A stretch of 64,000 nt of DNA, from assembly GCA_009015555.1 (NCBI GenBank), contig GCA_009015555.1_3613.1; one strand, given 5' to 3'. Source of the stretch: a phage. The stretch's first letter is position 1. Each line of letters opens with the position of its first letter. Both the position numbers and the translations under genes were made by a program. The notes beneath the pieces are model-generated. The model was not told the origin of the DNA, searched no databases, and worked only from the letters and a program-made list of their open reading frames with translations. Positions 13,960 through 34,982 of the stretch are shown here, in pieces.

Positions 13960-14400
13960 TCAACGACTTTTGTAAATCTTTTCTGCTTCTTCCCGGCGAC
14001 GTTCGTCACGGGCCTTCCTTTCGATGGCACACGCTTCCCGGTAGGCTTTCCGCCGGGCACCGCAGATACCTTCGACCAGACGCAGAACGCGATCCTGCTC
14101 CCAACGGTTCATCCAGTCGAGATCCCCGGAGACAACAGGGGAGCCGTGGAAGTTGTCACGGTAAAGGTACGTCTTCACCTTCCGTTCGTGGTCGAGGATC
14201 ACATAGTCCACAAAGTGGCTACAGCGGTCTCGGTCCGCTTGCGATGGGTTGTCGTACACTTCCAGCTTTTTGGCAGCGATCAATTCGAGAATCCGATTGA
14301 CCGGGGGCCGGGTCATGCGCCTTGGTGTCACGTACTTATCCCATGCCCATACGAGGACCAGAAGAATAAACAAACTTGTGCAGACCCAGAATCCCGTCAT
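13960..14400 (-). CDS. membrane-anchored hypothetical protein
   Basis: N-terminal TM helix WVCTSLFILLVLVWAW. Confidence 0.45.
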   Translation of the reverse strand: MTGFWVCTSLFILLVLVWAWDKYVTPRRMTRPPVNRILELIAAKKLEVYDNPSQADRDRCSHFVDYVILDHERKVKTYLYRDNFHGSPVVSGDLDWMNRWEQDRVLRLVEGICGARRKAYREACAIERKARDERRREEAEKIYKSR

Positions 14401-15764
14401 TCCAGATCCTCCGCAATAGCCCGCAGCAGATCCAGCAGGGAGTCAGATGCCTCGATCACCTCTTCCAGGCTGTTAGCCTTGGTCTTGTCCATACGGATCT
14501 CGACGAACTTGTAGTTCAGACGAGGCAGGAACAGAGACTGAAGCTCTTTGGTTTCCGACTTCGTGATGTCGTTGGCCTTGATCGTGATGATCTGCCCGAT
14601 GAAGAAGTCCGCTGGCTTCTTACGAAGCGCGTCCGTCAAGCCGGAGCCGACGCCAACTTCCAGCAAGCCGTCACGAGTACGACAGATCAGTGCGCCGACG
14701 AGACTAGGATCTTTCTTGTGCGGCGTTGTAGCCACGACTTCCAGATCAACATCGAACTCGTTCTTCAACTTGACGCCTTTCTTCGTCTTGTTGTCGCCCC
14801 ACGGCATCTTCGCCTCTTTGAGGACGGTGCCCTCTTTCTTCTGGAGGCGCATTTCGATGAAGTGGTCGATCGCTTCCTTCAGGCTGTTGATCTTACGGCC
14901 CGTAACCATACGGAAGTTGTAACGGCGATCGACTTCCTGCACCAGCAGATCCGCCTCGATACGACGATCAGCGTAGTCGGTCTTCGACTTACGTGCGATG
15001 TACTCTTCCATCGTCACGATGTCCCAGATCACCAGGCGCACCAGATCACGATCGATGTCTGCCGGGTCTTGGTTCAGGTAGCCGTTGCCCTCAGCACGTT
15101 CCATCACACCATGCAGGCCATCATCGTCGATAACCAGACCTTCGCCATGTGCCACAAAGGCCCCACGGTTTTCTGCCGCCTGCATCAGGCGCTGCTCGAT
15201 CTCTTCCGGAGCACGGAAGTTCAGTTCCTTCCCGGAGCGGGAGCGGTAGATCACCTGCTCAGGCCACACCATGATGTCCGCATACAGGCCATCCATTTTC
15301 TCGTCGGAGAAAGCGCCCTTGTAGTTGAACTTACGCAGCAGATCCTCTTTGAACAGGGTGTAGCTCTGGTACGGAGGCTCCGTGATCAGGTCTTTCCACA
15401 CCTTATTGGTCAGAGTGGTCTGGATGCCGCACTCCAGATCTCGGTTGATGATCTTCAGAAGTGTGCCCGGCTCCTCGCAGGTCTGTACCAGTTGAGTCAT
15501 GTACGACTTCGCATCATCACCCGTGTAAACTCGCCCTGCGATGTTCTTCACCAACAGATCCACGCTTTCAGACAGCGGGGTAAGACCAGTCGTGAAGAAT
15601 GGAACCCGCAGTCCTCGGACGAAAAAGTTCAGTTCTTTGGAATATGCAACAGCGAAGGCTTGTTTCAGGCCATCGTTATCGGCATTCGCCCGCAGGATCG
15701 CTTCCTTCTCCTTGAGGGATCGGGTTGCAGACAACTCTGCGAGAATACTCGTTACGTTTGACAT
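14397..15764 (-). CDS. ATP-dependent DNA ligase-like nucleotidyltransferase
   Basis: KMDG (KxDG motif I) about 157 aa from N-terminus, similar spacing to T4 DNA ligase from memory; RNA ligase not excluded. Confidence 0.55.
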   Translation of the reverse strand: MSNVTSILAELSATRSLKEKEAILRANADNDGLKQAFAVAYSKELNFFVRGLRVPFFTTGLTPLSESVDLLVKNIAGRVYTGDDAKSYMTQLVQTCEEPGTLLKIINRDLECGIQTTLTNKVWKDLITEPPYQSYTLFKEDLLRKFNYKGAFSDEKMDGLYADIMVWPEQVIYRSRSGKELNFRAPEEIEQRLMQAAENRGAFVAHGEGLVIDDDGLHGVMERAEGNGYLNQDPADIDRDLVRLVIWDIVTMEEYIARKSKTDYADRRIEADLLVQEVDRRYNFRMVTGRKINSLKEAIDHFIEMRLQKKEGTVLKEAKMPWGDNKTKKGVKLKNEFDVDLEVVATTPHKKDPSLVGALICRTRDGLLEVGVGSGLTDALRKKPADFFIGQIITIKANDITKSETKELQSLFLPRLNYKFVEIRMDKTKANSLEEVIEASDSLLDLLRAIAEDLE

Positions 15765-20211: not shown

Positions 20212-22002
20212 ATGTTACATAACGACCTGCCTATCCTGTTTGCTGACTGGTACAAACCGAGCCATATTTCCATGTACAGCAAACAGTCTGAGATCGTACA
20301 AGACAACATGACCCCACGCTCAAGCAAACACTTTCAGCACTTTTCTGACAGTGACCAGCGCGTCATGTCTGCTGGCCTGCAAGGCTTTATTAAGTGGTTC
20401 CTGATTGAACACTTCAACCGTGAGTTCTTCGGTCGTCCGAAGGAAGAAGTTATCGGGGAGTTCAAAGAGATCTGTGACCTGGCGATCGGCCCAGACATGG
20501 TTGAAACGTGGGGCTTCGAAAAGCTGCATGACCTGGGCTATCTGCCTGTTGAAATCCGCGCCCTGCCGGAAGGTACTCTTTCTCCGGTACAAGTGCCTCT
20601 GTTCACAATTCAGAACACGCACCCGGACTTCTACTGGCTTCCTAACTACCTGGAGTCAGTGATCTCCTCTGAAAACTGGAAAACCGTAACTACGGCAACC
20701 ATTTTCTGGCAGTATCGTAAGCTGGCTGAACTGTGGGCGCAGAAAACCTGCGACAACAACCTGCACGTCCCGTTCCAGATTCATTGCTTCGCTTATCGCG
20801 GCCAGGCTGGCACTCACGATGCGGCCCAGTCTGAACTGGGACAACTGATGAACTCTCAGGGCACCGACACCATCCCGGCGATCCTGTATGCAAACCGTTA
20901 TTACGGTATGAAAGGCAAGTTCGTATCCGGCTCCATCCCGGCATCCGAGCACAGCGTTGCAACAACGAACATCGGGTTCATCATCGGACGCCTCCGTTCT
21001 GAGCATCCGGAAATGTCGCTGGATGACCTGCGTTTCCACGCAGAAGTCGAGTTCCTGCGCCGATACATCACTGAAATCTTCCCGAAAGGTTTCGTGTCTT
21101 ATGTCGGCGACAGTTATGACTGGTTCCGCCTGATCACTCAGGGTGTTCGTATCCTGAAAGACGAAATCATGGCCCGTGATGGTCGTGTGGTATTCCGCCC
21201 GGATTCCGGCGTACCGGAAGACATCATCTGCGGCACACTGGACTGGCGTAAGATTGAAGACCTCGACACGGCAGGTACTCTGGAACGCGCTGCCAATTGG
21301 GCACTGGAAAGTGCCGAAGATGAAGTTCGTGAGAACACCCCGCACGGTGAATGCGGTGATGAATCCGTTGAACGTTACTTCCTGTTCGATGGCGATCTGT
21401 ACCTGATGAAGGGTGAGATTGACTGGAACCGTCACGACAAAACGTATTACTACATCGACGGTCGCCGTGTTCTGTCTTACGAAAAGGCAGAACTCACTGA
21501 TGAGCAGAAAGGTTCTGTTGAACTGCTGTACGATGTGTTCGGTGGCGACCTGAACTCCAAAGGCTATCGTACTCTGGACACCCACGTCGGCCTGATTTAC
21601 GGTGACTCCATCACCGTTGCTCGCGCCAAAGAGATCTTCGAGCGCCTGGAAGCAAAAGGCTTTGCATCGAACAACGTTGTGTTCGGTGTCGGTTCCTTCA
21701 CCACCCAGTTCAACACTCGTGATTCTCTGGGTCAGGCAGTCAAGGCGACAGGCGCGGTTATTGACGGTCAGCAGATCATGGTCGTCAAAGAGCCTAAGAC
21801 CGACCTCGGCAAGAAGTCTGCTCAGGGCTTCCTGAAGGTTGTTCGTGGTGAAGACGGTGAACTGAAGCTGGTTGATAACCTCCAACTGGAGCAAGTCAAC
21901 GATACCGACAATGAACTGCGTGTGGTTTTCCGTGACGGCGTTCTGCTGGTTGACGAAACGCTGACTGAAATCCGTGAGCGTGTCACAGCAAACCTGAAAT
22001 AA
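20212..22002 (+). CDS. Nicotinamide phosphoribosyltransferase (NAMPT/NadV) family protein; candidate nicotinamide ADPR transferase (Namat)
   Basis: 596-aa NAMPT-family translation immediately downstream of the Prs-like gene; RBS GAGGAG; no NMN adenylyltransferase seen in window. Confidence 0.8.
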   Translation: MLHNDLPILFADWYKPSHISMYSKQSEIVQDNMTPRSSKHFQHFSDSDQRVMSAGLQGFIKWFLIEHFNREFFGRPKEEVIGEFKEICDLAIGPDMVETWGFEKLHDLGYLPVEIRALPEGTLSPVQVPLFTIQNTHPDFYWLPNYLESVISSENWKTVTTATIFWQYRKLAELWAQKTCDNNLHVPFQIHCFAYRGQAGTHDAAQSELGQLMNSQGTDTIPAILYANRYYGMKGKFVSGSIPASEHSVATTNIGFIIGRLRSEHPEMSLDDLRFHAEVEFLRRYITEIFPKGFVSYVGDSYDWFRLITQGVRILKDEIMARDGRVVFRPDSGVPEDIICGTLDWRKIEDLDTAGTLERAANWALESAEDEVRENTPHGECGDESVERYFLFDGDLYLMKGEIDWNRHDKTYYYIDGRRVLSYEKAELTDEQKGSVELLYDVFGGDLNSKGYRTLDTHVGLIYGDSITVARAKEIFERLEAKGFASNNVVFGVGSFTTQFNTRDSLGQAVKATGAVIDGQQIMVVKEPKTDLGKKSAQGFLKVVRGEDGELKLVDNLQLEQVNDTDNELRVVFRDGVLLVDETLTEIRERVTANLK

Positions 22003-22938: not shown

Positions 22939-23161
22939 ACAGCACCGAATTAGTGATCGGCTACGGAGAAGGCATTCGTAGCGAAGAGGACTGGGGAGTT
23001 TTCGATGAGCGCCCGGACCTTTAATCACCTGCCGGGGGCGGATGACCCCCGGAACCACGAATATAAGGGATACATCTGCCTTTGTTTTGTGTGCGGAAAC
23101 AAATATCTTGGTCCAAAACGCTCGGTTATGTGCAATCTTTGTGCAAACGGTAAAAAGCCTG

Positions 23162-23190
23162 TTGACAAAGAGTAGAGCTACAGGTAATCT
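23162..23190 (+). promoter_or_regulatory. Candidate sigma70-type promoter upstream of tRNA array
   Basis: TTGACA at 23162-23167, 17-nt spacer, TAATCT at 23185-23190. Confidence 0.4.
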
Positions 23191-23477
23191 GAATATGTCC
23201 CGAACGAGATGACAATCAAGTAGGTGGATGGATAAGTCAACCCGGTCTGTTAAACGACCAAAGTGCCATTGCGGTTCGGGTTGAGTTCAGCCGGATAAAC
23301 AGCGGCTCCATCGACGGCCTCTGGAATAGCGACGGTTGCTTCAGGTCTCACGACCACCCGTTACGTGAAACACGCTTTTGCTGGACGAGAAGGGGAAGTC
23401 AACCCCACGGGCATACGTCCTCTGCCCATTTCTCCCTCCCCCGGAGCGTAACAACTACCGGACTTGCTGGGAGACTT

Positions 23478-23553
23478 GCTGGATTAGCTCAGTAGGTAGA
23501 GCGCCTCACTTGTAATGAGGATGTCGCGGGTTCGATTCCTGCATCCAGCACCA
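23478..23553 (+). tRNA. tRNA-Thr (anticodon TGT)
   Basis: Cloverleaf read by eye: acceptor gctggat/atccagc, anticodon loop cttgtaa, T-loop ttcgatt, CCA encoded. Confidence 0.8.
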
Positions 23554-23559
23554 GATCAT

Positions 23560-23636
23560 GCAACGTTGCCGGAGTCTGGTAACGGCTCTCGCTGCAAACG
23601 AGATGAGCACTGGTTCGAATCCAGTACGTTGCTCCA
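23560..23636 (+). tRNA. tRNA-Cys (anticodon GCA)
   Basis: Acceptor gcaacgt/acgttgc, anticodon stem tctcg/cgaga, loop ctgcaaa, T-loop ttcgaat, CCA. Confidence 0.75.
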
Positions 23637-23637
23637 A

Positions 23638-23714
23638 GCGCCTTTGGTCCAATTGGTAGAGGCACTACATTCAAAATGTAGGGGTTCCCAGTTCGAATCT
23701 GGGAAGGCGCACCA
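23638..23714 (+). tRNA. tRNA with CAA anticodon (Leu by anticodon) but short variable arm
   Basis: Acceptor gcgcctt/aaggcgc, anticodon stem ctaca/tgtag, loop ttcaaaa, T-arm cccag-ttcgaat-ctggg, CCA; only 5-nt variable region. Confidence 0.6.
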
Positions 23715-23730
23715 AAATTTATGTAACCTA

Positions 23731-23759
23731 TTGACATAGTGTAATTATACTGCTAATAT
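23731..23759 (+). promoter_or_regulatory. Sigma70-type promoter for the small gene embedded in the tRNA array
   Basis: TTGACA 23731-23736, 17-nt spacer, TAATAT 23754-23759, then RBS and ATG at 23786. Confidence 0.6.
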
Positions 23760-23785
23760 GGATACACTAATTCAATGGGGGCATT

Positions 23786-24160
23786 ATGAGCAAGGCTGCG
23801 ATTGTAACTCGTAAGCGTGGTCGCCCAAGCAAAGAAGAGAGCACAGCAATCGCCCTTGAAAAGGCAATGCTTGATCTCCGAGGCGAATTGGCCCGTCTGA
23901 CGCCGAAGGCCATTCATACTCTCGAAAACCTGCTCACAACAGGCACAGAGAAAGTGAAGGAAACCACGGCGAAGTATATCCTTGAGCAGGCGAAAGAGGT
24001 TAACAACCTCTATACTGAAGAGGATAACGAAGACGACGCAGCAGGCGGCACAACATCTGCCTCTTCTGAAACTCACGCTGGTTCTTCTGACGAGATGAAA
24101 AATGCCATCCCGTTGACAACCCAGATTCGTGAGTATAAAGCAGTAGGCGAAGATGATTAA
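23786..24160 (+). CDS. small protein with AT-hook-like RKRGRPSK motif (124 aa)
   Basis: Own promoter, RBS and downstream hairpin; basic N-terminus, acidic Ser/Thr-rich C-terminus. Confidence 0.5.
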   Translation: MSKAAIVTRKRGRPSKEESTAIALEKAMLDLRGELARLTPKAIHTLENLLTTGTEKVKETTAKYILEQAKEVNNLYTEEDNEDDAAGGTTSASSETHAGSSDEMKNAIPLTTQIREYKAVGEDD

Positions 24161-24162
24161 CT

Positions 24163-24190
24163 GGAAGGCTCCCGAAGGAGCCTTTATTAG
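24163..24190 (+). terminator. Terminator-like hairpin
   Basis: aaggctcccgaaggagcctt hairpin followed by tattag (weak T tract). Confidence 0.4.
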
Positions 24191-24325
24191 AAGTTCTCTT
24201 TTGACGGGCACTTGTTAACGACCCGCAGAATGACGACGGTGTACAACGGCGTTTGATGGCGAGGAAGGTCTATAGGGATCAGCGCAGATCCTTGGATGTC
24301 AGGTGAGCCGTACAAAAGAGAATTT

Positions 24326-24413
24326 GGGGAGTTATTTCCGTAGAGGTAGCGGTGCAGACTGTAAATCTGTTGTCATTGCGACTCGGGTGGTTCGACTCCA
24401 TCACTCCCCACCA
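24326..24413 (+). tRNA. tRNA-Tyr (anticodon GTA), long variable arm
   Basis: Acceptor ggggagt/actcccc, anticodon loop ctgtaaa, T-loop ttcgact, CCA. Confidence 0.75.
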
Positions 24414-24419
24414 AATTAT

Positions 24420-24514
24420 AGTAGGATGGCTGAGTGGCTTAAAGCAGCATCTTGGAAAGGTGTCGGATCAGGTAACCCCTGGTCCCGGGAGTTCAAATCT
24501 CCCTCCTACTGCCA
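24420..24514 (+). tRNA. tRNA-Ser (anticodon GGA), long variable arm
   Basis: Acceptor agtagga/tcctact, anticodon loop cttggaa, T-loop ttcaaat, CCA. Confidence 0.7.
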
Positions 24515-24518
24515 GACC

Positions 24519-24595
24519 GGATCGTTAGCTCAATTGGTTAGAGCAAGGGACTTTTAATCCCGAGGTTCGGGGTTCGAGTCCCTGACGGTCCACCA
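24519..24595 (+). tRNA. tRNA-Lys (anticodon TTT)
   Basis: Acceptor ggatcgt/acggtcc, anticodon loop cttttaa, T-loop ttcgagt, CCA. Confidence 0.75.
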
Positions 24596-24760
24596 GAAAG
24601 GAAGAGGGTCCAAGCTGGTAATGCGAGAGGCGAGTCCTCAGACCAAAGCCCAGATGGAGGCCACCCTAAAGTCGTCCAACCGAAGGTCCCTGATTGAGTA
24701 ATACTTCCCCGCTTGTCGGGTACAGTTCTCAGTCACACCGGAAGGGGCGCACCCTATAAT

Positions 24761-24836
24761 TGACGGTGAGCATATAAGGACATGCGGGGGCCTGTTAAGT
24801 CCAGGATAGCTGGTTCGAATCCAGTACCGTCAGCCA
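24761..24836 (+). tRNA. tRNA-Asn (anticodon GTT)
   Basis: Acceptor tgacggt/accgtca, D-stem gcat/atgc, anticodon loop ctgttaa, T-loop ttcgaat, CCA. Confidence 0.7.
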
Positions 24837-24945
24837 ATTTGGTTCCGACAAGGTGACGGCGCACCCCGGAGCGACGCTGAAAGATGCAGGCCGACGAACA
24901 CATACGTGTACTTAATCAATAGTCATTGCGATGGCTATTCGTTAA

Positions 24946-25023
24946 GTCCTGGTAGACAAACTGGATAAAGTCACCACCCTTTCAAGGTGGGGTTTGAGGG
25001 TTCGATCCCCTCTCAGGACGCCA
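24946..25023 (+). tRNA. tRNA-Glu (anticodon TTC)
   Basis: Acceptor gtcctgg/tcaggac, anticodon stem ccacc/ggtgg, loop ctttcaa, T-loop ttcgatc, CCA. Confidence 0.75.
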
Positions 25024-25117
25024 ATCTTTTAGGTCGGTAGATTAATGAGCAAAGGCCGCTCGCTGGATTCCAACCCCAGTTCAAGGCGTTCGATTCGTCA
25101 CCTTCCTGCCAAATTCA

Positions 25118-25193
25118 GGTCCTATGGTATTAGCGGTAAACATACTCGCCTGTCACGCGAGAGTCACGGGTTCGAATCCCGTTAGGACCGCCA
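25118..25193 (+). tRNA. tRNA-Asp (anticodon GTC)
   Basis: Acceptor ggtccta/taggacc, anticodon stem ctcgc/gcgag, loop ctgtcac, T-loop ttcgaat, CCA. Confidence 0.75.
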
Positions 25194-25200
25194 CTTCAAA

Positions 25201-25275
25201 TGGGGATTAGCTCAGGGGTAGAGCGCACAACTGATAATTGTGAGGTCGGTGGTTCGAAACCACCATCCCCAACCA
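25201..25275 (+). tRNA. tRNA-Ile (anticodon GAT)
   Basis: Acceptor tggggat/atcccca, D-arm gctc-aggggta-gagc, anticodon loop ctgataa, T-loop ttcgaaa, CCA. Confidence 0.75.
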
Positions 25276-25345
25276 AACAGCCCCTCCCGGGATTGGACCG
25301 GGTTAACGGCAATCGCACACTGAGGCGTCTTCCGGGGGAACAATA

Positions 25346-25422
<77 letters not shown>

Positions 25423-25428
25423 AATTAT

Positions 25429-25503
25429 TGCGAGGTAGTTCAGCGGTAGAACAGGGGTTTCATACGCCTCATGTCGGCAGTTCGATTCTGCCCTTCGCAA
25501 CCA
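25429..25503 (+). tRNA. tRNA-Met (anticodon CAT; initiator, elongator or Ile-lysidine type not distinguished)
   Basis: Acceptor tgcgagg/cttcgca, anticodon loop ttcatac, T-loop ttcgatt, CCA. Confidence 0.7.
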
Positions 25504-25509
25504 AATCAT

Positions 25510-25587
25510 GCTCCAGTAGCCCAATTGGTAGAGGCACTTGATTTAGGATCATGTCAGCGATGAGTTCGAATCTCTCCTGGAGTACCA
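25510..25587 (+). tRNA. tRNA with TAG anticodon (Leu by anticodon), short variable arm, weak T-stem
   Basis: Acceptor gctccag/ctggagt, anticodon stem cttga/tcatg, loop tttagga, T-loop ttcgaat with only ~3 bp T-stem, CCA. Confidence 0.5.
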
Positions 25588-25593
25588 CATAAA

Positions 25594-25667
25594 GCGGGCA
25601 TGGTATAGTGGTTGTGCCTTAGCCTTCCAAGCTAATGAGTCCGGTTCGATCCCGGATGTCCGCTCCA
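25594..25667 (+). tRNA. tRNA-Gly (anticodon TCC)
   Basis: Acceptor gcgggca/tgtccgc, anticodon stem ttagc/gctaa, loop cttccaa, T-loop ttcgatc, CCA. Confidence 0.75.
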
Positions 25668-25740
25668 ATTCACGGTGAGTCACTGCCGTTAAGTGTGAAG
25701 TTAAAAATGCCCGTGGTGATCGGGTTATCTCACCCAGTGT

Positions 25741-25816
25741 AGGGGATTAGTTTAATTGGTAAAACATCGGGTTTTGATCCCGACATCGCGAGGTTCGAAT
25801 CCTCCATCCCCCGCCA
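25741..25816 (+). tRNA. tRNA-Gln (anticodon TTG)
   Basis: Acceptor aggggat/atccccc (A1-C72 mismatch), anticodon stem tcggg/cccga, loop ttttgat, T-loop ttcgaat, CCA. Confidence 0.7.
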
Positions 25817-25898
25817 CATTAATGCTCATTAGCTCTTGTCAGTGGAACTCGAACCCTTAGAGCAGGCGACACAGACGTGTGTTTTAGTGAGCATCAAT

Positions 25899-25974
25899 GT
25901 GGCCTTAATTCAGCAGGTAGAATCCCCGGTTGTGAACCGGGCAGTCGTGGGTTCAAGTCCCACAGGTCACCCCA
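25899..25974 (+). tRNA. tRNA-His (anticodon GTG)
   Basis: Acceptor gtggcct/aggtcac, anticodon stem cccgg/ccggg, loop ttgtgaa, T-loop ttcaagt, CCA. Confidence 0.75.
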
Positions 25975-25978
25975 ATCT

Positions 25979-26071
25979 GGAAGATAGGGCGTAGTGGTAC
26001 GCACCCGGATTTGAACCCCGGCCCGCTGTGGCGACCCCACGGTGATAGTTCGACTCTATTATCTTCCGCCA
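25979..26071 (+). tRNA. tRNA-Ser (anticodon TGA), long variable arm
   Basis: Acceptor ggaagat/atcttcc, anticodon loop tttgaac, long variable arm, T-loop ttcgact, CCA. Confidence 0.65.
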
Positions 26072-26092
26072 CCCCTGATCATAAGGCAAACT

Positions 26093-26785
26093 ATGTTAGA
26101 AATGTTAACAGTGGGTAAATACACCCCTAGTCCTATAATTTCTAGCCCTATGGATGCTTATTTTGAGGGCGAGAGGAATAATAAATACGGCACTGTTGAG
26201 TGGGTTGTTCCTCAAGGCGTCACCTCAATCTGCTGTGTAGTGATAGGCGCAGGATCTTCTGGCAGAAGCGGCGGTCTTTCTTGGAGAAACAACATTCCAG
26301 TTACACCTGGTGAAAAACTTAAAATGCAGGTTAACTCCACAGCCAGCGCCCTCTTGAGAGAGACAACTATCCTTTGTGCTGCCCAGTGTGGCGGCAACGG
26401 AGGAAAAACATATAACTCTGTGAACGACGGTGGAGGCAATGCTGGACAATCACCACATGGTAGAGGTGGTGCTGGCGGCTACACCGGGAATGGTGGTGAT
26501 GGGCATACGTTCACAGGTGGTCCAGGACCAGGGTCCCCAGGTTCAGGTGGCGGCGGCGGCGGAGGCGCAGTTGTGTATCTGAACGGATCATTGACACCAA
26601 CTGTCTGCGGCGGAGTCGGCATGTATGGACAGGGGTCGAATGGTGGCGCTGATAACAGCGCCGGATATCCAGGCTCCGGCGGTTCTGGAACAAGATACGG
26701 AAGAGCAGTCGATGGTTATGGTGTTGTCAGGGTTGTGTGGGGAAATTATTCATTCCCAACAAATGCCCCGAGACCGAAATCCTGA
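26093..26785 (+). CDS. glycine-rich hypothetical protein (~230 aa) embedded in tRNA array
   Basis: Start taken at MLEMLTVGKY (track ORF start at 26042 lies inside tRNA-Ser); Gly-rich GGxGG runs and C-terminal GYGVVRVVWG. Confidence 0.5.
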   Translation: MLEMLTVGKYTPSPIISSPMDAYFEGERNNKYGTVEWVVPQGVTSICCVVIGAGSSGRSGGLSWRNNIPVTPGEKLKMQVNSTASALLRETTILCAAQCGGNGGKTYNSVNDGGGNAGQSPHGRGGAGGYTGNGGDGHTFTGGPGPGSPGSGGGGGGGAVVYLNGSLTPTVCGGVGMYGQGSNGGADNSAGYPGSGGSGTRYGRAVDGYGVVRVVWGNYSFPTNAPRPKS

Positions 26786-26856
26786 TAGGGATGGTCCCTA
26801 CGAGGATCGTCTTTTGCTCAGTGGTACTCAGCATTTACTTAGTATTCAAACAATAT

Positions 26857-26943
26857 AGAAGAGTGGCGAAATAGGTAGCCGCACCGGACTGCTAATCCGG
26901 GGTCCTTCGGGGCCTGAGAGTTCAAGTCTCTCCTCTTCTGCCA
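26857..26943 (+). tRNA. tRNA-Ser (anticodon GCT), long variable arm
   Basis: Acceptor agaagag/ctcttct, anticodon stem ccgga/tccgg, loop ctgctaa, T-loop ttcaagt, CCA. Confidence 0.75.
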
Positions 26944-26948
26944 AGCAT

Positions 26949-27024
26949 GGAACTGTAGCTCAGTTGGTAGAGCGGTTGCCTGAAGAGCAGCGCGTCAGCG
27001 GTTCAAATCCGTTCAGTTCCACCA
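26949..27024 (+). tRNA. tRNA-Phe (anticodon GAA)
   Basis: Acceptor ggaactg/cagttcc, D-arm gctc-agttggtaga-gagc, anticodon loop ctgaaga, T-loop ttcaaat, CCA. Confidence 0.8.
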
Positions 27025-27066
27025 CATTCTAACAAGAATAAAATATCTCCTCTCCTTCGCCTCAGT

Positions 27067-27091
27067 GCCCTCCTTCGTGGAGGGCTTTTTT
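27067..27091 (+). terminator. Rho-independent terminator closing the tRNA array
   Basis: gccctcc-ttcgt-ggagggc hairpin followed by tttttt. Confidence 0.65.
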
Positions 27092-27130
27092 ATTTCTGGT
27101 TTCGGTGATAAAATACCCAAAGGAGGTATT

Positions 27131-27502
27131 ATGACAACTTTCATATTGAAGTACAAGAAGTACCTGATCGGCATCGGGGTCGCGGCCCTTCTGCTGTTCT
27201 CCTTTAATTGGTATGTCGGCACCAAGGAGGATGCGGCTTATGACCGTGGCTTTCAGTATGCAAACACCCAGTGGGAGAAAAAGGGAAAAGAGTACGTTGA
27301 TCTTATCGACAAAGGTAAGGCTGACAACACGGCTCTTAATGAAGAACTGGCTCGGGTATCTGAGGAAAAGCGTAAGCTGGAAGAAGCCCGCCGTCATAAT
27401 GTAAACGACAAACAGGTCGAATACAACAAAACTGAAGCCGCCCGGAAGAAAGGGTTGGACGATGACTTTGTGGATCTGTACAACGAATCCTTGGGGGACT
27501 GA
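27131..27502 (+). CDS. i-spanin-like (Rz-like) inner-membrane lysis protein
   Basis: AAAGGAGG RBS; N-terminal TM helix LIGIGVAALLLFSF then charged coiled-coil region. Confidence 0.58.
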   Translation: MTTFILKYKKYLIGIGVAALLLFSFNWYVGTKEDAAYDRGFQYANTQWEKKGKEYVDLIDKGKADNTALNEELARVSEEKRKLEEARRHNVNDKQVEYNKTEAARKKGLDDDFVDLYNESLGD

Positions 27503-27816
27503 TGAGAAAATTTATTCTCGGAATGTTCATGGTTCTGGCACTGTCAGCGTGCAGCAACAAAGACAGAATCCCAGAGGTTGCCTTCAAGGGCACCACGGTA
27601 GAAGACCTTGTAGATAAGCCGGACCGAGAGCTAATGCGTAAGGCTCCACCAAAGCAGTACCTCAAGAAAGGTACAGACAACGGTGAAGGCGCGGTTGTTA
27701 TAAGTAACAACAACTTGCGGGCAGCGACAGTCGAGCGCAGGCTCGAAGACCTCCAGCAATACGTCTGCAACCTCTTCCAAGACCCAGTTGGGGAAGTCTG
27801 CGTAAAGGGTAAGTGA
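27502..27816 (+). CDS. o-spanin-like (Rz1-like) outer-membrane lipoprotein
   Basis: Lipobox LALSAC after signal peptide; ATGA overlap with upstream i-spanin-like gene. Confidence 0.62.
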   Translation: MRKFILGMFMVLALSACSNKDRIPEVAFKGTTVEDLVDKPDRELMRKAPPKQYLKKGTDNGEGAVVISNNNLRAATVERRLEDLQQYVCNLFQDPVGEVCVKGK

Positions 27817-27824
27817 TTGTGCCA

Positions 27825-27858
27825 AAAGGCTCTCCATACGTGGAGGGCCTTTTCTTTT
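27825..27858 (+). terminator. Terminator-like hairpin with T-run
   Basis: ggctctcca-tacg-tggagggcc followed by ttttctttt; lies inside the TTG-initiated track ORF, supporting the later terminase start. Confidence 0.5.
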
Positions 27859-27921
27859 AGGTCACTTTGTGATAATATACCTACTATCGAAGCATGTCAA
27901 TTTATTTATTCAGGAGAGTTA

Positions 27922-29409
27922 ATGTCCGCTACATTCGCACCCGCGAGTCGTAAGCAACAGATGGTTCTCGAATCTAAAGCACAGATCCTCATCATGGGTG
28001 GCGCAGCAGGCTCCGGCAAATCTTACCTGCTCCAGTTGATGCCCCTGTTGATCATTGATGATCCTCGTACAGCTTGCATCATGTTCCGCCGTACAGTGCC
28101 TCAGATTCGTGGTCAGGGCGGTCTGTTCGACAAAGCGAAAGATATTTACAACCAGCTTCCTCCGGTCGTCAAGCCTAAGTTCAAAGAGAACGAGATGATT
28201 GCGACCTTCCCGAACGGGGCGACGGTGAAGTGGCAGTCCATGCAGCACATCAACGATAAGTATAACATCCAGGGTCTGGAATTTACTTTCATTGGTGTGG
28301 ATGAAGGGACCCAGTTTGACTGGGAACAGCTTGAGTACATGATGTCGCGTTTGCGTTCAAACTCAAAGTACCCTTCCCGTATGGTCGTATCTTGTAACCC
28401 CGACCCGGATCATAAGCTCCGGGAAATGATTGACTGGTATCTGGATGAGAATGGTCTGCCGATCCCTGAACGTGACGGAGTTATCCGTTGGTTTGTTCGT
28501 GTGGATGACAACTACATCTGGGGTTCCACCAAGGAAGAACTGAAGCAACGCTTCGGTAAGAAATGTAAGCCTGTTTCATTCAGCTTCATCTCTTCCACCA
28601 TTTACGACAACCCTCCGATGCTGATCAACAACCCGGAGTACCTTGCCCAGTTGGAAGGTCTGAACGATGTTGACCGCGCCCGCCTGCTTCACGGCAACTG
28701 GGACGCTCGCCCGGAAGGTGCAAACTATTTCAAACGTGAGTTCCTGAAAGAGGTGGATTGCCTCCCGATGAACGTCACGAAAGTCCGTGCTTACGATAAG
28801 GCAGGTACGGAGCGATCCACAGCAAACAAAACCCCTGACTTTACGGCGGGGATTGGTGTGGCCCGCGATGACGACGGATTTTATTACCTGTATGGAAACT
28901 ACCATGACGATTTCATCGACAATGGTGAGTGGTCCACTGGCACCGCCGGGCGCTTCTGTAAGAAAGCTGGCGAACGTGACGTGATTATCACGAAGCAGGC
29001 AATGCTGGACGGTGACGACACAATCGTCATTTTCTCCGTTGACCCCGGTCAGGCAGGTATCTCCGAGTTCACCACGTCATCCCGTGATCTTATCTCGAAA
29101 GGGTATATGGTAGAGAAAGACCCGACACCCGGTAACAAATCGAAGCTAACCCGCTTCTCCCCGTTTGCCCAGTTGGCACAGAACGGATTTGTCCGGATCG
29201 TTAAGAAGTCATTCCCTCTGGACACGTACAACGCATTGATGAAAGAACTTGAGTCTTTCAACGGTGAACGTTCTACCGGGTCCCGTAAGGATGACTGGGC
29301 GGATGCCGTGGCATCAGGAATTAACTTCCTGGAGAAGACCGAGGTCGTCCGCGCCGTCGCTATTCCTCGACCAAATGCCCCTACTCTGTACGCCTCACGT
29401 CGTTATTAA
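27922..29409 (+). CDS. Terminase large subunit
   Basis: Walker A GGAAGSGKS, Walker B-like FIGVDEG, nuclease-domain SCNPDPDH; RBS AGGAGA before ATG at 27922. Confidence 0.85.
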   Translation: MSATFAPASRKQQMVLESKAQILIMGGAAGSGKSYLLQLMPLLIIDDPRTACIMFRRTVPQIRGQGGLFDKAKDIYNQLPPVVKPKFKENEMIATFPNGATVKWQSMQHINDKYNIQGLEFTFIGVDEGTQFDWEQLEYMMSRLRSNSKYPSRMVVSCNPDPDHKLREMIDWYLDENGLPIPERDGVIRWFVRVDDNYIWGSTKEELKQRFGKKCKPVSFSFISSTIYDNPPMLINNPEYLAQLEGLNDVDRARLLHGNWDARPEGANYFKREFLKEVDCLPMNVTKVRAYDKAGTERSTANKTPDFTAGIGVARDDDGFYYLYGNYHDDFIDNGEWSTGTAGRFCKKAGERDVIITKQAMLDGDDTIVIFSVDPGQAGISEFTTSSRDLISKGYMVEKDPTPGNKSKLTRFSPFAQLAQNGFVRIVKKSFPLDTYNALMKELESFNGERSTGSRKDDWADAVASGINFLEKTEVVRAVAIPRPNAPTLYASRRY

Positions 29410-29427
29410 TATCACAGGGGATATGCC

Positions 29428-30951
29428 GTGTCAAGAAAACGTAATCGTAACCGCTCCGTTAAAGTGGCTAAGGCCACCAGCGAGCAACTTAACGTATCCC
29501 GTATGCGTATGAGTGAGCAAGGGACCTTTGCTCTGGCTAAGGTTCAGGTTGACTCCGAACGTATGAAGGCCGAAGAGATTCGCTGGCCCAACCTGATTGG
29601 TACAGTCGAGTCAATGAAGCAGGACGCCACCGTTGCGACGGGCCTTGACATGCTGTACACTTTCGTGGAGAAGGCGTTCAAGGATTTCAAGGTAATCCCT
29701 GGCGAATCTGAGGAGTCCAAAAAGGCTGCTAAGTTTGTTGAGTATTGCCTGAAGAACATGGAAGGTCAAACCCTTCGTCAGTTCGCCCGTGACGCCGCAA
29801 CATTCAACGAGTATGGCCTGTCAGTTGTGGAGAAAGTCTACACTCAGGTTACTGTTGGGGAATACATCGGCAAGTACAAGGTAAAGAACCTTGCTTTCCG
29901 ACCGCAGGCGTCCTTGAGCCGGACAAACCCGATTGTTTACAATGAGGACGGCTCTGCCATCATCGGTATTAAACAATCCCTATCTGCGTTCCAGAACTAC
30001 ACAGCCAGTGAGATTGGTGTTGGTGGCGTATCCACCCGCATGAGTGATGTCATTATCCCAATCAATCGTGTCATGCTGATGAACACGGGAGGCTCTTCAT
30101 CTCAGGCTCTCGGTGTCTCTCCTCTGGTAGGGTGCTACCGAGCGTGGCGTGAAAAGATTCTGATTGAGAACCTTGAGGTTGTTGGCGCAACCAAGGACAT
30201 GGGTGGTGTGATCGAATTGAAGATCCCTTCCCAGATCCTGAACAAAGCTGCAATGGACCAGTCTTCTCCTGAAGCAGAAATGGTCCGTGGCCTGATGTCT
30301 GACGCTGCAAATGCCCACTCCGGTGAGCAGTCATTCTTCATGCTGCCATCTGATACAAAGGATAACGCCCCTCAGTATTCAATGACCCTCAAGGGCATCG
30401 ACGGGATGGGTAAGCAGTACAGCACCGCACAGTTGATCAGTGACCGTAAGAAGTCAATCCTTGATCGTCTGGGCGCTGGCTTCATCAACGTGGGTAACGA
30501 CAAAGGCGGTTCTTACAACCTGTCTGAGTCCAAGCAGACTATCCACACCCAGTTTGTTCAACGTGTAAACGAGATCATTCTGGAAGCTCTGAACGAAAAC
30601 CTGCTGCCACAATTGCTGGCTCTGAACGATATGCGCCTCCCGGAGACGGAGATGCCATACGTCAAGGCTGGGGAAATCGTGGACGTGGACATGGAAGGTT
30701 TCTCCAAGGCGATTCAGCGTATTGGTGCCGTTGGATACCTGCCGAAAACTCCGAAGGTTATCAACCGTGTACTGGAAGTTCTGGGCATTGATGAGAAGAT
30801 TGAGGAAGACATTTCTCAGGAAGAACTCATGAAGCTGTTGGGTGAAGATACGAGCCGCGCCGGAGACGGCATGACGAAAGGATCTTCTGGTAACGGTACT
30901 GGCAAAATCTCTTCCACAAGAGATAATTCAGCGGCTAATTTGGATAATTAA
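29428..30951 (+). CDS. Portal protein (putative; GTG start)
   Basis: ~500-aa ORF immediately after large terminase, size and position typical of portal. Confidence 0.65.
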   Translation: MSRKRNRNRSVKVAKATSEQLNVSRMRMSEQGTFALAKVQVDSERMKAEEIRWPNLIGTVESMKQDATVATGLDMLYTFVEKAFKDFKVIPGESEESKKAAKFVEYCLKNMEGQTLRQFARDAATFNEYGLSVVEKVYTQVTVGEYIGKYKVKNLAFRPQASLSRTNPIVYNEDGSAIIGIKQSLSAFQNYTASEIGVGGVSTRMSDVIIPINRVMLMNTGGSSSQALGVSPLVGCYRAWREKILIENLEVVGATKDMGGVIELKIPSQILNKAAMDQSSPEAEMVRGLMSDAANAHSGEQSFFMLPSDTKDNAPQYSMTLKGIDGMGKQYSTAQLISDRKKSILDRLGAGFINVGNDKGGSYNLSESKQTIHTQFVQRVNEIILEALNENLLPQLLALNDMRLPETEMPYVKAGEIVDVDMEGFSKAIQRIGAVGYLPKTPKVINRVLEVLGIDEKIEEDISQEELMKLLGEDTSRAGDGMTKGSSGNGTGKISSTRDNSAANLDN

Positions 30952-31020
30952 TCCGGTCGTGAAAACAACCTGTTGCAAAACAGTCAGTTCAGTGCTAAAA
31001 TAATTATCACGGGAGCAATG

Positions 31021-31596
31021 ATGGAAAACATTACCCTTTCCGACCTTCCTTCACAAACTAATCTGACTCGAATCCAAAAGAGTCGGTTTGTGAAAAAGGC
31101 CAACGACCTGTTGAAGCAGGGCTTTAATAAAGCTGCTGCCGTTAACGGGGCCGTTGGCTCCGTCCTCGTCCAGAAAGCCGCTGGTGAAGAAGAGATGATT
31201 TCTTATGAGATCATCTACGAACCTGACACCCCGGACCTTCACGGACAGTGGATGTCGAAAGAGACCTTGGTAAAGGCTCAACAGGATTTCAAAAAGGCTC
31301 AGGAACTCGGTGCTGTCACGGAGAACCTGTATCACCTTTTCGACACCGACTCTTGGAAAATCGTTGACCACTGGATTCAACCAGAGTTCGACGTTAATGT
31401 AGCGCAAACTGGCGAAGTAATCAAGGCCGGATCTTGGGTTGCAAAAGTTCAGTACACCCCTGAGACATGGGAGTTGAAGAAGGCCGGACTTATCGGTGGC
31501 CTGTCACTTCAGTGCGGCGGAATGCTGAACGAAGAGACGAATGAACTTTCCGAACTGGACTTCAGTATTTCACTCGAAGAAGAGGAAGCCAAATGA
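31021..31596 (+). CDS. head morphogenesis protein (possible prohead protease or scaffold-associated)
   Basis: Position between portal and scaffold-like gene; no catalytic motif confirmed. Confidence 0.35.
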   Translation: MENITLSDLPSQTNLTRIQKSRFVKKANDLLKQGFNKAAAVNGAVGSVLVQKAAGEEEMISYEIIYEPDTPDLHGQWMSKETLVKAQQDFKKAQELGAVTENLYHLFDTDSWKIVDHWIQPEFDVNVAQTGEVIKAGSWVAKVQYTPETWELKKAGLIGGLSLQCGGMLNEETNELSELDFSISLEEEEAK

Positions 31597-32702
31597 TCAA
31601 GACGTGGATCGAGAAAGGTCGCCAGATTAAATCTCGCGGCATTGCTCTCACTCACCGAGATCAGGGCTACAGCGCGAATAACCGCCACGTCAGCCTCCTG
31701 ACCAAATCCGAAGTTGACCCTGAGAAACTCACGGTTGACATCATCAAATCTCTCGAACAGGTCCAACTCACCATTTCTATGGAAGAGTACCTGCGCCGCT
31801 TCTTCCACCTGTGGAGTGGAGATGCAGAGTTGCTCACCAAAGTGCTGGGCATGAAGACCGAGTTCGAACAGTCCATCGAAGACAACCCGCCGGATGATGA
31901 TTCCTGGGAAGCAGAATGGAATGAGCGCCACCAAGAATACTTGGAACAGAAGCTCTCCTCTGTCACCCTTATCAAGAAAGCGAAGGCTGGCGATGAACTG
32001 TCACTGCTTGAACAGTTTGAACTTATCAAGGCCCGTAAGGACTTCGAAGAAGGTTGCCGTGACCTCGGCATCGACTTCGGTGATGATTCAACTGTAGTCA
32101 AACCCGCCACTGAAGTCAAGCCTGTTGTGGAAACGCAAAAGTCTGTGACTCCTGTAGCGCCAACTGAAAGCTCCGCTGGAGCGACTATCAAACCCGACGA
32201 GGAGATTCCCGTGGAGAAAGAAGTTGATGTAACCAAATCCCAGCAGTTCATTGACCTGATGAAGGCCAACGAAGCTCTGGTGGCGCAGATGAAATCTATG
32301 GAAGGCACTCTTACCGCTGCCCAAGAGATCGTCAAGTCCCAAGCTGCTGCTAAACGTGCAATCGCCGTTGAGAAAGCCGCTGGCTTTAGCTTCGTAGCTG
32401 CTGACCAGCGCGATGTTGTTGCTGACGTTATCGAAAACCCGGCGCAGGCTGTTCTGGTGGCTGTACTGGAAAAAGCTGCTGCTGATCTGAAAGCGAAAGA
32501 CGAAGCTCTGGCTGCTAAAGATCTGGAGATCGAAGAAGTTAAAAAATCCTTCGCAAATGGCAAAGAAGTCGGTGCTGATGGCACTCTGACTGAAGTAGCC
32601 AAAGGTTCCGAAGATGCACAGGCCCGCCTGGACCGTGTGATCAAAGAACGCGCTGCGGAACTGGCGAAAGCCGCTAAATCCGCTGAATTTATTAACGCCT
32701 AA
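31593..32702 (+). CDS. scaffolding-like protein (Ala/Glu/Lys-rich, coiled-coil)
   Basis: Low-complexity acidic coiled-coil sequence upstream of capsid gene. Confidence 0.5.
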   Translation: MIKTWIEKGRQIKSRGIALTHRDQGYSANNRHVSLLTKSEVDPEKLTVDIIKSLEQVQLTISMEEYLRRFFHLWSGDAELLTKVLGMKTEFEQSIEDNPPDDDSWEAEWNERHQEYLEQKLSSVTLIKKAKAGDELSLLEQFELIKARKDFEEGCRDLGIDFGDDSTVVKPATEVKPVVETQKSVTPVAPTESSAGATIKPDEEIPVEKEVDVTKSQQFIDLMKANEALVAQMKSMEGTLTAAQEIVKSQAAAKRAIAVEKAAGFSFVAADQRDVVADVIENPAQAVLVAVLEKAAADLKAKDEALAAKDLEIEEVKKSFANGKEVGADGTLTEVAKGSEDAQARLDRVIKERAAELAKAAKSAEFINA

Positions 32703-32719
32703 TCTGGAGAACCTGACAA

Positions 32720-33169
32720 ATGGCTAAAGCACACGTTGCTACTCTCGAAGGTAACTACTCTGACATCGTTCTGGGCCGTGTTGTCGCTTTCGGCGATACT
32801 GGTTGGAACTTCAAAGAAGTGGACATGACCTTCATCGCATCTGATGCGGATGCAGATTCCAAAACTGCTCTGTTCGCTGGTATGCTGGTTGGCGAAGATG
32901 GAACCCCTGCTACTGCGGCTGATGGCGTCTTCGGCGTTCTGGTTGACCGTAAGGTTCTGCCGGGCGTTGACCACTACATCGGCGTTTTCGAACCGGGCGA
33001 AAAAGTCCCTATGGTTCTCGCTGTTCGCGGCCTGACCCTGAACCAGTTGAAACTGAAGTATGCTGACGGCTCTGACATTGATGCTGCTGGCATTAAAGCT
33101 CTGGAAGCCCAAGGTAACCAGGTAACTGATAAGATTGTCGGCACCCAGTTCATCGGTTCCGTACTGTAA
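32720..33169 (+). CDS. head decoration-like / hypothetical protein (149 aa)
   Basis: Small gene immediately upstream of putative major capsid gene. Confidence 0.35.
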   Translation: MAKAHVATLEGNYSDIVLGRVVAFGDTGWNFKEVDMTFIASDADADSKTALFAGMLVGEDGTPATAADGVFGVLVDRKVLPGVDHYIGVFEPGEKVPMVLAVRGLTLNQLKLKYADGSDIDAAGIKALEAQGNQVTDKIVGTQFIGSVL

Positions 33170-33188
33170 TTTAACAGGAGATATTTAA

Positions 33189-34187: not shown

Positions 34188-34189
34188 TT

Positions 34190-34222
34190 GGAAAAGGTCA
34201 CCCTCGGGTGGCCTTTTTTATT
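34190..34222 (+). terminator. Rho-independent terminator after capsid gene
   Basis: aaggtcaccctcgggtggcctt hairpin followed by ttttatt. Confidence 0.65.
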
Positions 34223-34307
34223 GACTGCGGTATAACTGTACATTTTAAGCAAAATAGTGTACCATTGTAAGATAGGCTTTTGATTATCAACGAAGGAGTA
34301 TCCTATA

Positions 34308-34922
34308 ATGGCACAACCTCATCTGGAAGTGTTCCAGAGCGAATACCACATGCTCAAGTTCTTCGGTCAATACCTGCCGAAACTGGACGTTGACGCATCT
34401 GCCCGCCTGGCACCGTTCCTGTATTCCTATGACAACGAACTGGTGATGGGCCGAAACCTTTATGAGTTCCTGAACCAGATTGAAGCGATGACCGCACTGG
34501 GCATCAATACGATCGCATCTGTTCAGAAAGGTGCTGCATTCCTCGTCTTCTTCGACGAGACCCCTAAGTCTCCAGAGAAGTTCTTGGCTAACATCGGTGA
34601 GATCAAGGCGGCTCGCGCCAACGTGATCCCAGAAGATGTTGAGACCGAGGTGGAATCACCACTGTCCTCTCTGGTACAAACAACTGTAATTGATCCTACG
34701 CCGGAAGTCAAGGAAGAAGTGAAGGAAGAAGAAAAATCTGCTTCTGCCCGCACTGACGAACAAAAGGCAGAGATCCTCGCTCATGCAGAAACCCTGCGTG
34801 ACGACACCAAAAAAGCGGCTGCTAAGGCTGCGCTGGAATCCTACGCTTTGACTATGGAGATCTCTCTGAGCAAGGCTAAGACTTTTGACGCAATGTTGGA
34901 AGACCTGAAAGCTGCACTGTAA
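34308..34922 (+). CDS. hypothetical protein (204 aa)
   Basis: ORF with RBS; acidic C-terminal half. Confidence 0.45.
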   Translation: MAQPHLEVFQSEYHMLKFFGQYLPKLDVDASARLAPFLYSYDNELVMGRNLYEFLNQIEAMTALGINTIASVQKGAAFLVFFDETPKSPEKFLANIGEIKAARANVIPEDVETEVESPLSSLVQTTVIDPTPEVKEEVKEEEKSASARTDEQKAEILAHAETLRDDTKKAAAKAALESYALTMEISLSKAKTFDAMLEDLKAAL

Positions 34923-34982
34923 TTCCCTCCGGCCCCCGTGCGGGGCCATCCTCCTCCAATCCCGCCTCCGGAGAAGCAAGTA

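Follow-up and report, generated by a model that had tools for sequence, protein, structure and literature searches.

A class I-sized leucine tRNA with anticodon CAA in the tRNA cluster of a Certrevirus-like phage

The sequence at 23638-23714 of the window (the whole 64,000-nucleotide stretch of phage DNA that was analysed) is confirmed as a real phage tRNA gene. It encodes a leucine tRNA that looks unusual, having a variable loop of only 5 nt, and is otherwise ordinary. The molecule has a perfect cloverleaf fold, the nucleotides that specify leucine in E. coli are present and conserved in diverged homologues, the tRNA body is leucine-like, and the codon that its anticodon matches, UUG, is aligned with leucine in a related phage. 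We consider it a working phage type I leucine tRNA that is charged by the host's leucyl-tRNA synthetase (LeuRS), with a probability of roughly three in four.

The tRNA gene, its cluster and its close relatives

ARAGORN predicted a tRNA-Leu(caa) of 77 nt on the plus strand at 23638-23714, with the CCA encoded and the anticodon starting at tRNA position 35 (window 23672-23674). The Rfam model RF00005, which has a gathering score of 29 bits, covered 23638-23711 over its full length (model positions 1-71 of 71) with 56.5 bits (E = 1.4e-10). The two programs agree on fold and anticodon with the initial annotation, which had described a class-I-sized tRNA carrying a CAA anticodon. Its details, a ctaca/tgtag stem around the loop ttcaaaa, the CAA anticodon, a variable region of about 5 nt and A73, are all correct by the ARAGORN cloverleaf, which divides the gene as follows.

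23638..23714, plus strand: type I tRNA-Leu, anticodon CAA, 77 nt including CCA (ARAGORN; Rfam, 56.5 bits; covariance model R1, described below, 60.3 bits; CR3 annotation)
23647..23663, plus strand: D arm, 3-bp stem GTC/GGC (G-C, U.G, C-G) and 11-nt loop CAATTGGTAGA (ARAGORN cloverleaf)
23665..23681, plus strand: anticodon arm CTACA / TTCAAAA / TGTAG, 5-bp stem, with A36-A37-A38 (ARAGORN cloverleaf)
23682..23686, plus strand: variable loop GGGTT, 5 nt, last base U48 (ARAGORN cloverleaf)
23711..23714, plus strand: discriminator A73 (the A at 23711) and encoded CCA (ARAGORN cloverleaf)

The acceptor stem has 7 bp in this cloverleaf, and the T arm consists of a 5-bp stem, CCCAG/CTGGG, and the T loop TTCGAAT. 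A14, A15 and G18G19 are located within the 11-nt D loop, CAAUUGGUAGA. The molecule has the stems expected of a tRNA (7, 3-4, 5 and 5 bp), U33 in a 7-nt anticodon loop, a TTCRA T loop and G18G19. The long variable arm that gives class II tRNAs their shape is absent, the loop being only 5 nt, and the combination of this loop with a leucine anticodon makes it a type I tRNA-Leu.

On sequence identity the window is assigned to a Certrevirus that resembles Cronobacter phage CR3 (Vequintavirinae); the region and the right end of CR3 share 97.6% identity. The CAA tRNA is 98.7% identical to the annotated tRNA-Leu of CR3 and relatives, and across 15 records, from phages of Cronobacter, Enterobacter, Pantoea, Klebsiella and Pectobacterium, it shows 96-99% identity. 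A chance match is excluded: the gene lies in a cluster of 19 tRNA genes and has this identity to an annotated tRNA-Leu. In CR3, CR8, PBES 02 and their Certrevirus relatives the homologue occupies the same cluster position and bears the label tRNA-Leu in GenBank/RefSeq. The differences amount to one or two base changes; position 4 of the tRNA, for example, is T in CR3 and C in the window, so that a G.U pair of CR3 is a G-C pair here. From the copy in Certrevirus POP17 it differs by double substitutions that compensate each other, in the acceptor stem and in the anticodon stem. Because RefSeq annotates the CR3 homologue, the gene and its tRNA-Leu label are already public. Neither the annotation of the relatives, as listed, nor the literature searched comments on the missing variable arm or the class I size.

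The cluster and the features around it are given below.

1718-2764, minus strand: gene with a Pfam match to ThyX (Thy1)
14397-15764, minus strand: gene with a Pfam match to ATP-dependent DNA ligase
20212-22002, plus strand: gene with a Pfam match to a nicotinate/nicotinamide phosphoribosyltransferase-family protein
23478..27024, all genes on the plus strand: tRNA cluster of 19 genes, 18 found by ARAGORN plus tRNA-Tyr (ARAGORN, Rfam, CR3 comparison)
~24326-24411, plus strand: long-armed tRNA-Tyr, anticodon GTA, ending in CACCA (Rfam; CR3 annotates the homologue as tRNA-Tyr)
25510..25587, plus strand: second short leucine tRNA (UAG anticodon); D arm and A73 as in the CAA tRNA (ARAGORN; Rfam, 44.1 bits; R1, 47.2 bits)
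27067..27085, plus strand: terminator-like hairpin GCCCTCC-TTCGT-GGAGGGC followed by TTTTTTATTT, just 3' of the last tRNA gene (consensus scan)

ARAGORN and Rfam found no long-armed leucine tRNA in the 19-gene cluster. Long variable arms are retained by its three serine tRNAs (87-95 nt) and by the tyrosine tRNA. By ARAGORN the phage also has its own Phe and Met tRNAs, and its tRNA set is near-complete. The second leucine tRNA has a weaker fold, with three Watson-Crick pairs in the T stem and one U.U mismatch in the anticodon stem; it and the CR3 copy differ in the variable region, TCAATGATG against TCAGCGATG. This UAG tRNA may be decaying, or it may fold in an unusual way. The tyrosine tRNA was missed by ARAGORN and appeared in Rfam as a sub-threshold tRNA-Sec match of 32.9 bits; it scored 30.5 bits in R1. 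Terminator-like sites were not more numerous in the consensus scan than expected from shuffled sequence, and the promoter scan gave 8 promoter-like sites against 4.9 +/- 2.4 in shuffled sequence, which is not above expectation.

The cluster varies among close relatives, evidently by insertion of a putative mobile endonuclease. In CR3 tRNA-Asn and tRNA-Glu are separated by the gene of an HNH endonuclease (gp262), at 2520-2876 of the compared CR3 segment; this gene is absent in the window, where the gap from tRNA-Asn to tRNA-Glu is 24837-24945 or about 109 nt. ARAGORN also finds in CR3 an extra tRNA-Glu(ctc) right after tRNA-Glu(ttc), at 2984-3063 of the CR3 segment, which is not in the window's list. 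In a comparison of window 23000-38264 with CR3, window 23000-27922 corresponds to CR3 143917-149273, the end of that record, and window 34938 corresponds to CR3 7017. Since the window spans the ends of the CR3 record, the source genome is permuted, or joined across its termini, relative to CR3. The three genes with Pfam matches lie 5' of the cluster, and the genes for the terminase large subunit, portal and major capsid proteins lie 3' of it.

Leucine identity of the tRNA body and the meaning of UUG

The identity set of E. coli LeuRS consists of A73, A14, A15-U48, G18G19 and A20a (PMC9976931; PMC6614811, introduction). The anticodon and the long arm are reported to be dispensable for leucine identity in E. 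coli, and minimal tRNA-Leu variants without the arm are still charged (PMC9976931; PMC6614811). For alignment, the E. coli genes leuX (CAA) and leuW (UAG) were taken by coordinates. The D loop AAT(T/C)GGTAGA, U8, A14, A15, G18G19, U48 and A73 are common to both phage leucine tRNAs in this alignment. The anticodon loop of the CAA tRNA, TTCAAAA, is exactly that of leuX, and its G18G19 sit in a leucine-type D arm (3-bp stem, loop AAUUGGUAGA) whose loop is that of leuW and is one base off that of leuX. What separates the CAA tRNA from leuX and leuW in the alignment is a deletion of about 8 nt at the variable arm. The CAA tRNA combines A73, A14, A15 with U48, and G18G19 in a leucine-type D arm with an anticodon of the leucine series (NAG or YAA), and A15 and U48 would form the tertiary pair of the E. 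coli set. Two of the options raised by the initial annotation gain support here. One was a non-canonical leucine tRNA, and the molecule is indeed type I, with a short arm on a leucine-type body. The other was an identity set by elements such as A73, and A73, A14, the putative A15-U48 pair and G18G19 are present and are invariant in the 63 homologues described below.

The tRNAs of the cluster were scored with R1, a covariance model built from 54 long-armed leucine tRNAs only (viral sequences plus leuX and leuW). The CAA tRNA scored 60.3 bits, the UAG tRNA 47.2 bits and the best other class I tRNA 41.9 bits. The CAA tRNA reaches its score even though it offers 4 nt in place of 12 arm positions of the model. 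It is the top short tRNA of the cluster in R1 and only 10th of 17 in the generic Rfam tRNA model, so its body is specifically leucine-like. The long-armed tRNA-Ser(GCU) at 26857-26943 (plus strand) scored 67.7 bits in R1, above every other tRNA of the cluster. It has a leucine-like D arm (GAAATAGGTAGCC) but G73, and illustrates how few positions divide the class II serine and leucine tRNAs.

The meaning of UUG was assessed by aligning 55 ORFs of the window with Escherichia phage W70, of whose 137 kb two regions totalling 52 kb were used. This Vequintavirinae relative has 63.5% amino-acid identity, and its tRNA region holds five tRNA genes, none of them for leucine. At 95 of 150 aligned TTG codons (63.3%) W70 has leucine, the other residues being Ile, Val, Ala, Phe and Met. 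The corresponding figures for other leucine codons of the window are 63.4% for CTT, 64.7% for CTC and 71.2% for CTG. The 95 leucine matches at TTG are encoded in W70 by other leucine codons in 69 cases and by TTG in 26. By this comparison UUG keeps its standard meaning, leucine, in the phage. The CAA anticodon reads a sense codon whose meaning is unchanged, which is not what a suppressor or recoding tRNA does. With UUG used as leucine, a tRNA that inserted another residue there would be harmful.

In 57 ORFs of the window TTG makes up 15.9% of leucine codons, or 12.3 per 1000, and is not enriched; this usage is about the E. coli level. Codon compensation was considered as a sufficient explanation for the leucine tRNAs and rejected, TTG (15.9%) and CTA (2.1%) not being enriched in these ORFs. 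TTA (2.2% of leucine codons, 1.7 per 1000) and CTA (2.1%, 1.6 per 1000) are nearly avoided despite a G+C content of 51%. TTA is the sole leucine codon that neither phage leucine tRNA (CAA, UAG) can read. The two tRNAs could between them read up to about 98% of the phage leucine codons, if the UAG tRNA reads all CUN codons including CUC (17.3%). Such coverage fits a near-complete phage tRNA set that lessens the dependence of late translation on the host pool.

Short leucine tRNAs in other viruses and in bacteria

A pattern that combined the D loop of the window type, a leucine anticodon and a variable loop of 4-6 nt had at least 120 matches in viral contigs. The loci of the matches listed contained 165 unique short viral tRNAs with leucine anticodons, 93% of which have A73 (153/165) and 95% U48 (156/165). 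A73 and U48 occur together in 88% of these 165, as against 18% of 1305 other class I tRNAs. A D arm with a 3-bp stem and an 11-nt loop was found in 72% of the short viral leucine tRNAs, 55% of the long leucine tRNAs and 5% of other class I tRNAs, again among the matches listed; most other class I tRNAs have a 4-bp stem and an 8-nt loop. The same figures were obtained from 68 short leucine tRNAs that lack the exact search motif. When the anticodon was left free in the scan, a D arm spaced in this way was found in 30 short tRNAs, and 23 of them had leucine anticodons. In 63 representatives with less than 90% mutual identity, U8, A14, A15, G18, G19, U33, A35, U48 and A73 are invariant. These representatives contain 475 double-sided changes across the four stems, and all of the stems covary; their 100% pairing is partly a matter of selection, as sequences were picked for a fully paired ARAGORN structure.

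The same architecture carries three leucine anticodons. CAA is found on it in Pectobacterium phage POP17, Vibrio phage VH7D and Streptomyces phage Alone3, UAA in Escherichia phage 4MG, Salmonella phage KE22 and Klebsiella phage Sealy, and UAG in Pectobacterium phage DU_PP_V and, once more, Alone3. A near-identical body has the anticodon CAA in Certrevirus but UAA in both Seunavirus and Klebsiella phage Sealy, as expected if identity is independent of the anticodon, that is, if the synthetase is anticodon-blind. The tRNAs of KE22, 4MG and Sealy have acceptor, D and T arms nearly identical to those of the window's CAA tRNA and a completely different anticodon arm, TGAGG/CTTAAGA/CTTCA (UAA, G37). 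This looks like an exchange of anticodon arms between orthologous tRNA bodies, common to a myovirus genus and Klebsiella phage Sealy. Isolates whose hosts were E. coli K-12, Salmonella, Klebsiella, Pectobacterium, Cronobacter and Vibrio contain homologues, so the fold has been maintained in hosts with LeuRS of the E. coli type.

The frequency of short leucine tRNAs was estimated in an independent viral sample of about 120 loci, which was collected by a neutral search for a common T arm followed by CCA and scored as short when the variable region was at most 6 nt. Bacterial serine and tyrosine tRNAs are normally long-armed. In the neutral sample 25 of 53 unique leucine tRNAs (about 47%) were short, against 4 of 60 for serine (7%) and 1 of 35 for tyrosine (3%); the sample is small and the counts ignore relatedness, and the contrast of leucine with serine and tyrosine is large. 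Leucine tRNAs that do not themselves match the neutral pattern were short in 16 of 39 cases. For serine identity a portion of the long arm is important, and for leucine identity in E. coli it is not (PMC9976931); a loss of the arm from leucine tRNAs alone fits this difference in arm dependence. Class I-sized tRNAs with the tyrosine anticodon GTA do occur in viral contigs, rarely (one of 72 nt, and one in the anticodon-free scan), as do a few for serine. Short-armed leucine tRNAs seem to be frequent in phages and the pattern seems under-reported; the literature searched contained no description of them, which is weak evidence given its poor coverage of subscription journals.

The same pattern applied to one genome per bacterial species gave at least 80 loci. 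Among the matches listed, solo chromosomal tRNA-Leu(CAA) genes of 75-77 nt, which combine a variable loop of 5 nt with A73 and U48, were found in Bifidobacterium, Alloscardovia, Gardnerella, Actinomyces, Mobiluncus and Actinomadura. A short leucine tRNA therefore appears, from these genes, to be the normal reader of UUG in several actinobacterial families beyond Streptomyces. Solo short genes with UAA were found in Verrucomicrobia, and, in cyanobacteria, Bradyrhizobium and Nocardioides, short leucine tRNAs within arrays that hold 14-39 tRNA genes, likewise among the matches listed. The leucine tRNAs of the Bifidobacteriaceae, Actinomyces, Mobiluncus and Actinomadura and those of the arrays share with the phage CAA tRNA the CCCAATTGGTAGAGG D arm, a 5-nt loop ending in U, and A73. 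They differ in being cellular genes and in a body identity of about 60-70%. There were no Enterobacteriaceae among the 80 loci listed for the bacterial pattern, and a blastn search of all complete E. coli genomes with the 77-nt query gave no match at E up to 1.

The closest counterpart in E. coli by decoding is leuX, which has the same anticodon and anticodon loop, the D-arm plan xAAT(T/C)GGTAGA, U8, A14, A15, G18G19, U48, A73 and CCA. Its variable arm has 13 nt and that of the phage tRNA 5 nt. The phage CAA tRNA is not a recent copy of a host gene, because it has only about 62% identity to leuX outside the arm. Outside the variable region its identity is about 62% to leuX and leuW and averages 57-63% to the short and 57% to the long leucine tRNAs of other viruses, and 60% to short ones of cellular origin. 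Two origins were considered and set aside, a recent deletion of the arm from a host gene and a single type I lineage; these identities hold no signal for either.

A published bacterial relative in kind is the type I tRNA-Leu(CAA) of S. coelicolor, a substrate of that species' own LeuRS (Fan et al. 2019, PMC6614811). It resembles the phage tRNA in its CAA anticodon and 5-nt variable loop and in being a bacterial-type leucine tRNA. It shares a single compartment with class II tRNAs (PMC6614811). In this tRNA U8-A14 matters and a loop of 5 nt is the minimum for good charging, and S. coelicolor LeuRS charges it through a specialised leucine-specific domain and does not use A73 (PMC6614811). E. coli LeuRS (EcLeuRS) could not leucylate it, and the authors stated that this enzyme charges only type II tRNA-Leu (PMC6614811). 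The S. coelicolor tRNA however has C48 where the phage tRNA has U48, which with A15 makes a putative pair of the type that the E. coli enzyme reportedly needs, and so the failure of the E. coli enzyme may not transfer to the phage tRNA. Animal mitochondrial tRNA-Leu is also type I, without a long arm, and its identity depends on A73 and A14 (PMC9976931). It is degenerate and floppy and has a dedicated mitochondrial LeuRS, whereas the core of the phage tRNA is of the canonical bacterial type throughout.

According to a review, tRNA-Leu carries the long arm everywhere except in animal mitochondria (PMC9976931), and the one paper found on type I tRNA-Leu in bacteria regards it as a rarity of Streptomyces (PMC6614811). 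The present scans suggest the opposite in phages, those of E. coli, Salmonella, Klebsiella and Vibrio included, where short-armed leucine tRNAs with the E. coli-type identity set intact would be about as common as long-armed ones. The premise of the initial annotation, that bacterial tRNA-Leu is canonically type II with a long arm, is too strong if taken as universal, with type I molecules in S. coelicolor, in phages and in Actinobacteria.

Charging by the host synthetase and other explanations

The CAA tRNA would be transcribed with the plus-strand cluster and processed to a CCA-ended 77-mer. The enterobacterial LeuRS of the host, which is of the E. coli type, would then charge it with leucine, ignoring both the anticodon and the lack of a long arm. 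Recognition would depend on A73 and the tertiary core, that is, A14, A15-U48 and G18G19 placed in the leucine-type D loop. C34 would decode UUG, and A37, within A36-A37-A38, is a likely target of isopentenyl modification by the host, as it is in E. coli leuX. With the CAA and UAG tRNAs the phage may be able to read UUG and most CUN codons without host leucine tRNAs. The perfect fold and the identity set, conserved in phages of six host groups, argue that the CAA tRNA works. Counting against this explanation are the failure of EcLeuRS on the S. coelicolor type I tRNA, the only direct test of the E. coli enzyme on a type I tRNA-Leu, the lack of any special codon demand, and the weak T stem of the companion UAG tRNA. 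The literature searched describes neither expression nor aminoacylation of this tRNA or of another type I tRNA-Leu from a phage.

The initial annotation also proposed a recoding tRNA. On that reading a class I body would be charged by another synthetase, for example PheRS, TrpRS or MetRS, and would insert another residue at UUG. The class I size is in its favour, as is the CAA anticodon, one base removed from GAA, CCA and CAU (Phe, Trp and Met), together with A73, which is common to tRNA-Phe. Against these stand the TTG positions, which face leucine in W70 (63.3%) just as CTT and CTC do, and a body that scores as leucine in R1 and as no other isotype. The D arm is of the leucine type, unlike the 4-bp stem and 8-nt loop of most other class I tRNAs, and the phage carries Phe and Met tRNAs of its own. 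Recoding is accordingly given very little credence. The CAA tRNA could instead be an RNA of tRNA shape that is a poor substrate, or none, for enterobacterial LeuRS, a passenger of a mobile cluster or perhaps a decoy or processing signal. Movement of tRNA clusters between phages with homing endonucleases has been discussed (PMC8421152), and the HNH gene that CR3 has in the cluster and the window lacks is consistent with it; EcLeuRS fails on the Streptomyces tRNA-Leu(CAA), the sister UAG tRNA has a degraded T stem, and codon usage shows no demand. A passenger or decoy would not, however, be expected to show a perfect fold, compensatory changes and identity nucleotides that are invariant across very diverged copies. 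Nor does it agree with leucine anticodons in 23 of 30 homologues from a search that left the anticodon free, or with the presence of the whole E. coli identity set, including the U48 that the Streptomyces tRNA lacks. We regard it as improbable, less so than recoding.

A further explanation concerns why the arm is short rather than whether the tRNA is charged. The short arm may be an adaptation by which the tRNA escapes host enzymes that recognise or cleave the long arm of class II tRNAs, so that decoding of UUG and CUN is sustained under attack. The idea that arm loss could protect phage decoding from tRNA-targeting defences is raised by analogy with published anti-phage systems that act on the variable arm or on class II tRNAs; AbiEii and MenT3 prefer long-armed class II tRNAs (bioRxiv 10.64898/2026.01.19.700257). 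Escape of a short-armed tRNA from such arm-directed systems is plausible. It would agree with the enrichment of type I leucine tRNAs in viral contigs (47% of leucine tRNAs in the neutral sample), with the lack of similar sequences in E. coli genomes by blastn, and with a near-complete tRNA set in which two leucine tRNAs could cover up to about 98% of leucine codons. We know of no defence system that targets tRNA-Leu through its arm, and the literature searched yielded nothing that does. The serine and tyrosine tRNAs of the same phages keep their arms, although this could simply reflect what each synthetase accepts. T5, the best-studied carrier of anti-defence tRNAs, has a long-armed tRNA-Leu(UAG). 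A type I tRNA-Leu is a normal solo gene in Bifidobacteriaceae and other Actinobacteria, and so needs no anti-defence rationale. Such an adaptation is unlikely on balance, though it is the least remote of these alternatives. Equally tentative is the broader proposal that type I leucine tRNAs are a general and hitherto undescribed phage hallmark (about half of viral leucine tRNAs, against a few per cent for serine and tyrosine), charged by E. coli-type LeuRS in contradiction to the published view of that enzyme as type II-specific, and kept for immunity to factors directed at class II tRNAs.

A working type I leucine tRNA remains the preferred reading, and for the window the annotation is settled as a leucine tRNA and not a recoding element. 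It raises a testable question, whether enterobacterial LeuRS charges a natural type I tRNA-Leu with A15-U48, for which the CAA tRNA offers a natural and compact LeuRS substrate. Phage T5, whose tRNAs have been investigated by biochemical means, was considered as a source of experimental support and rejected, its only leucine tRNA being long-armed (85 nt, UAG). Both short and long kinds of leucine tRNA thus occur in phages of E. coli.
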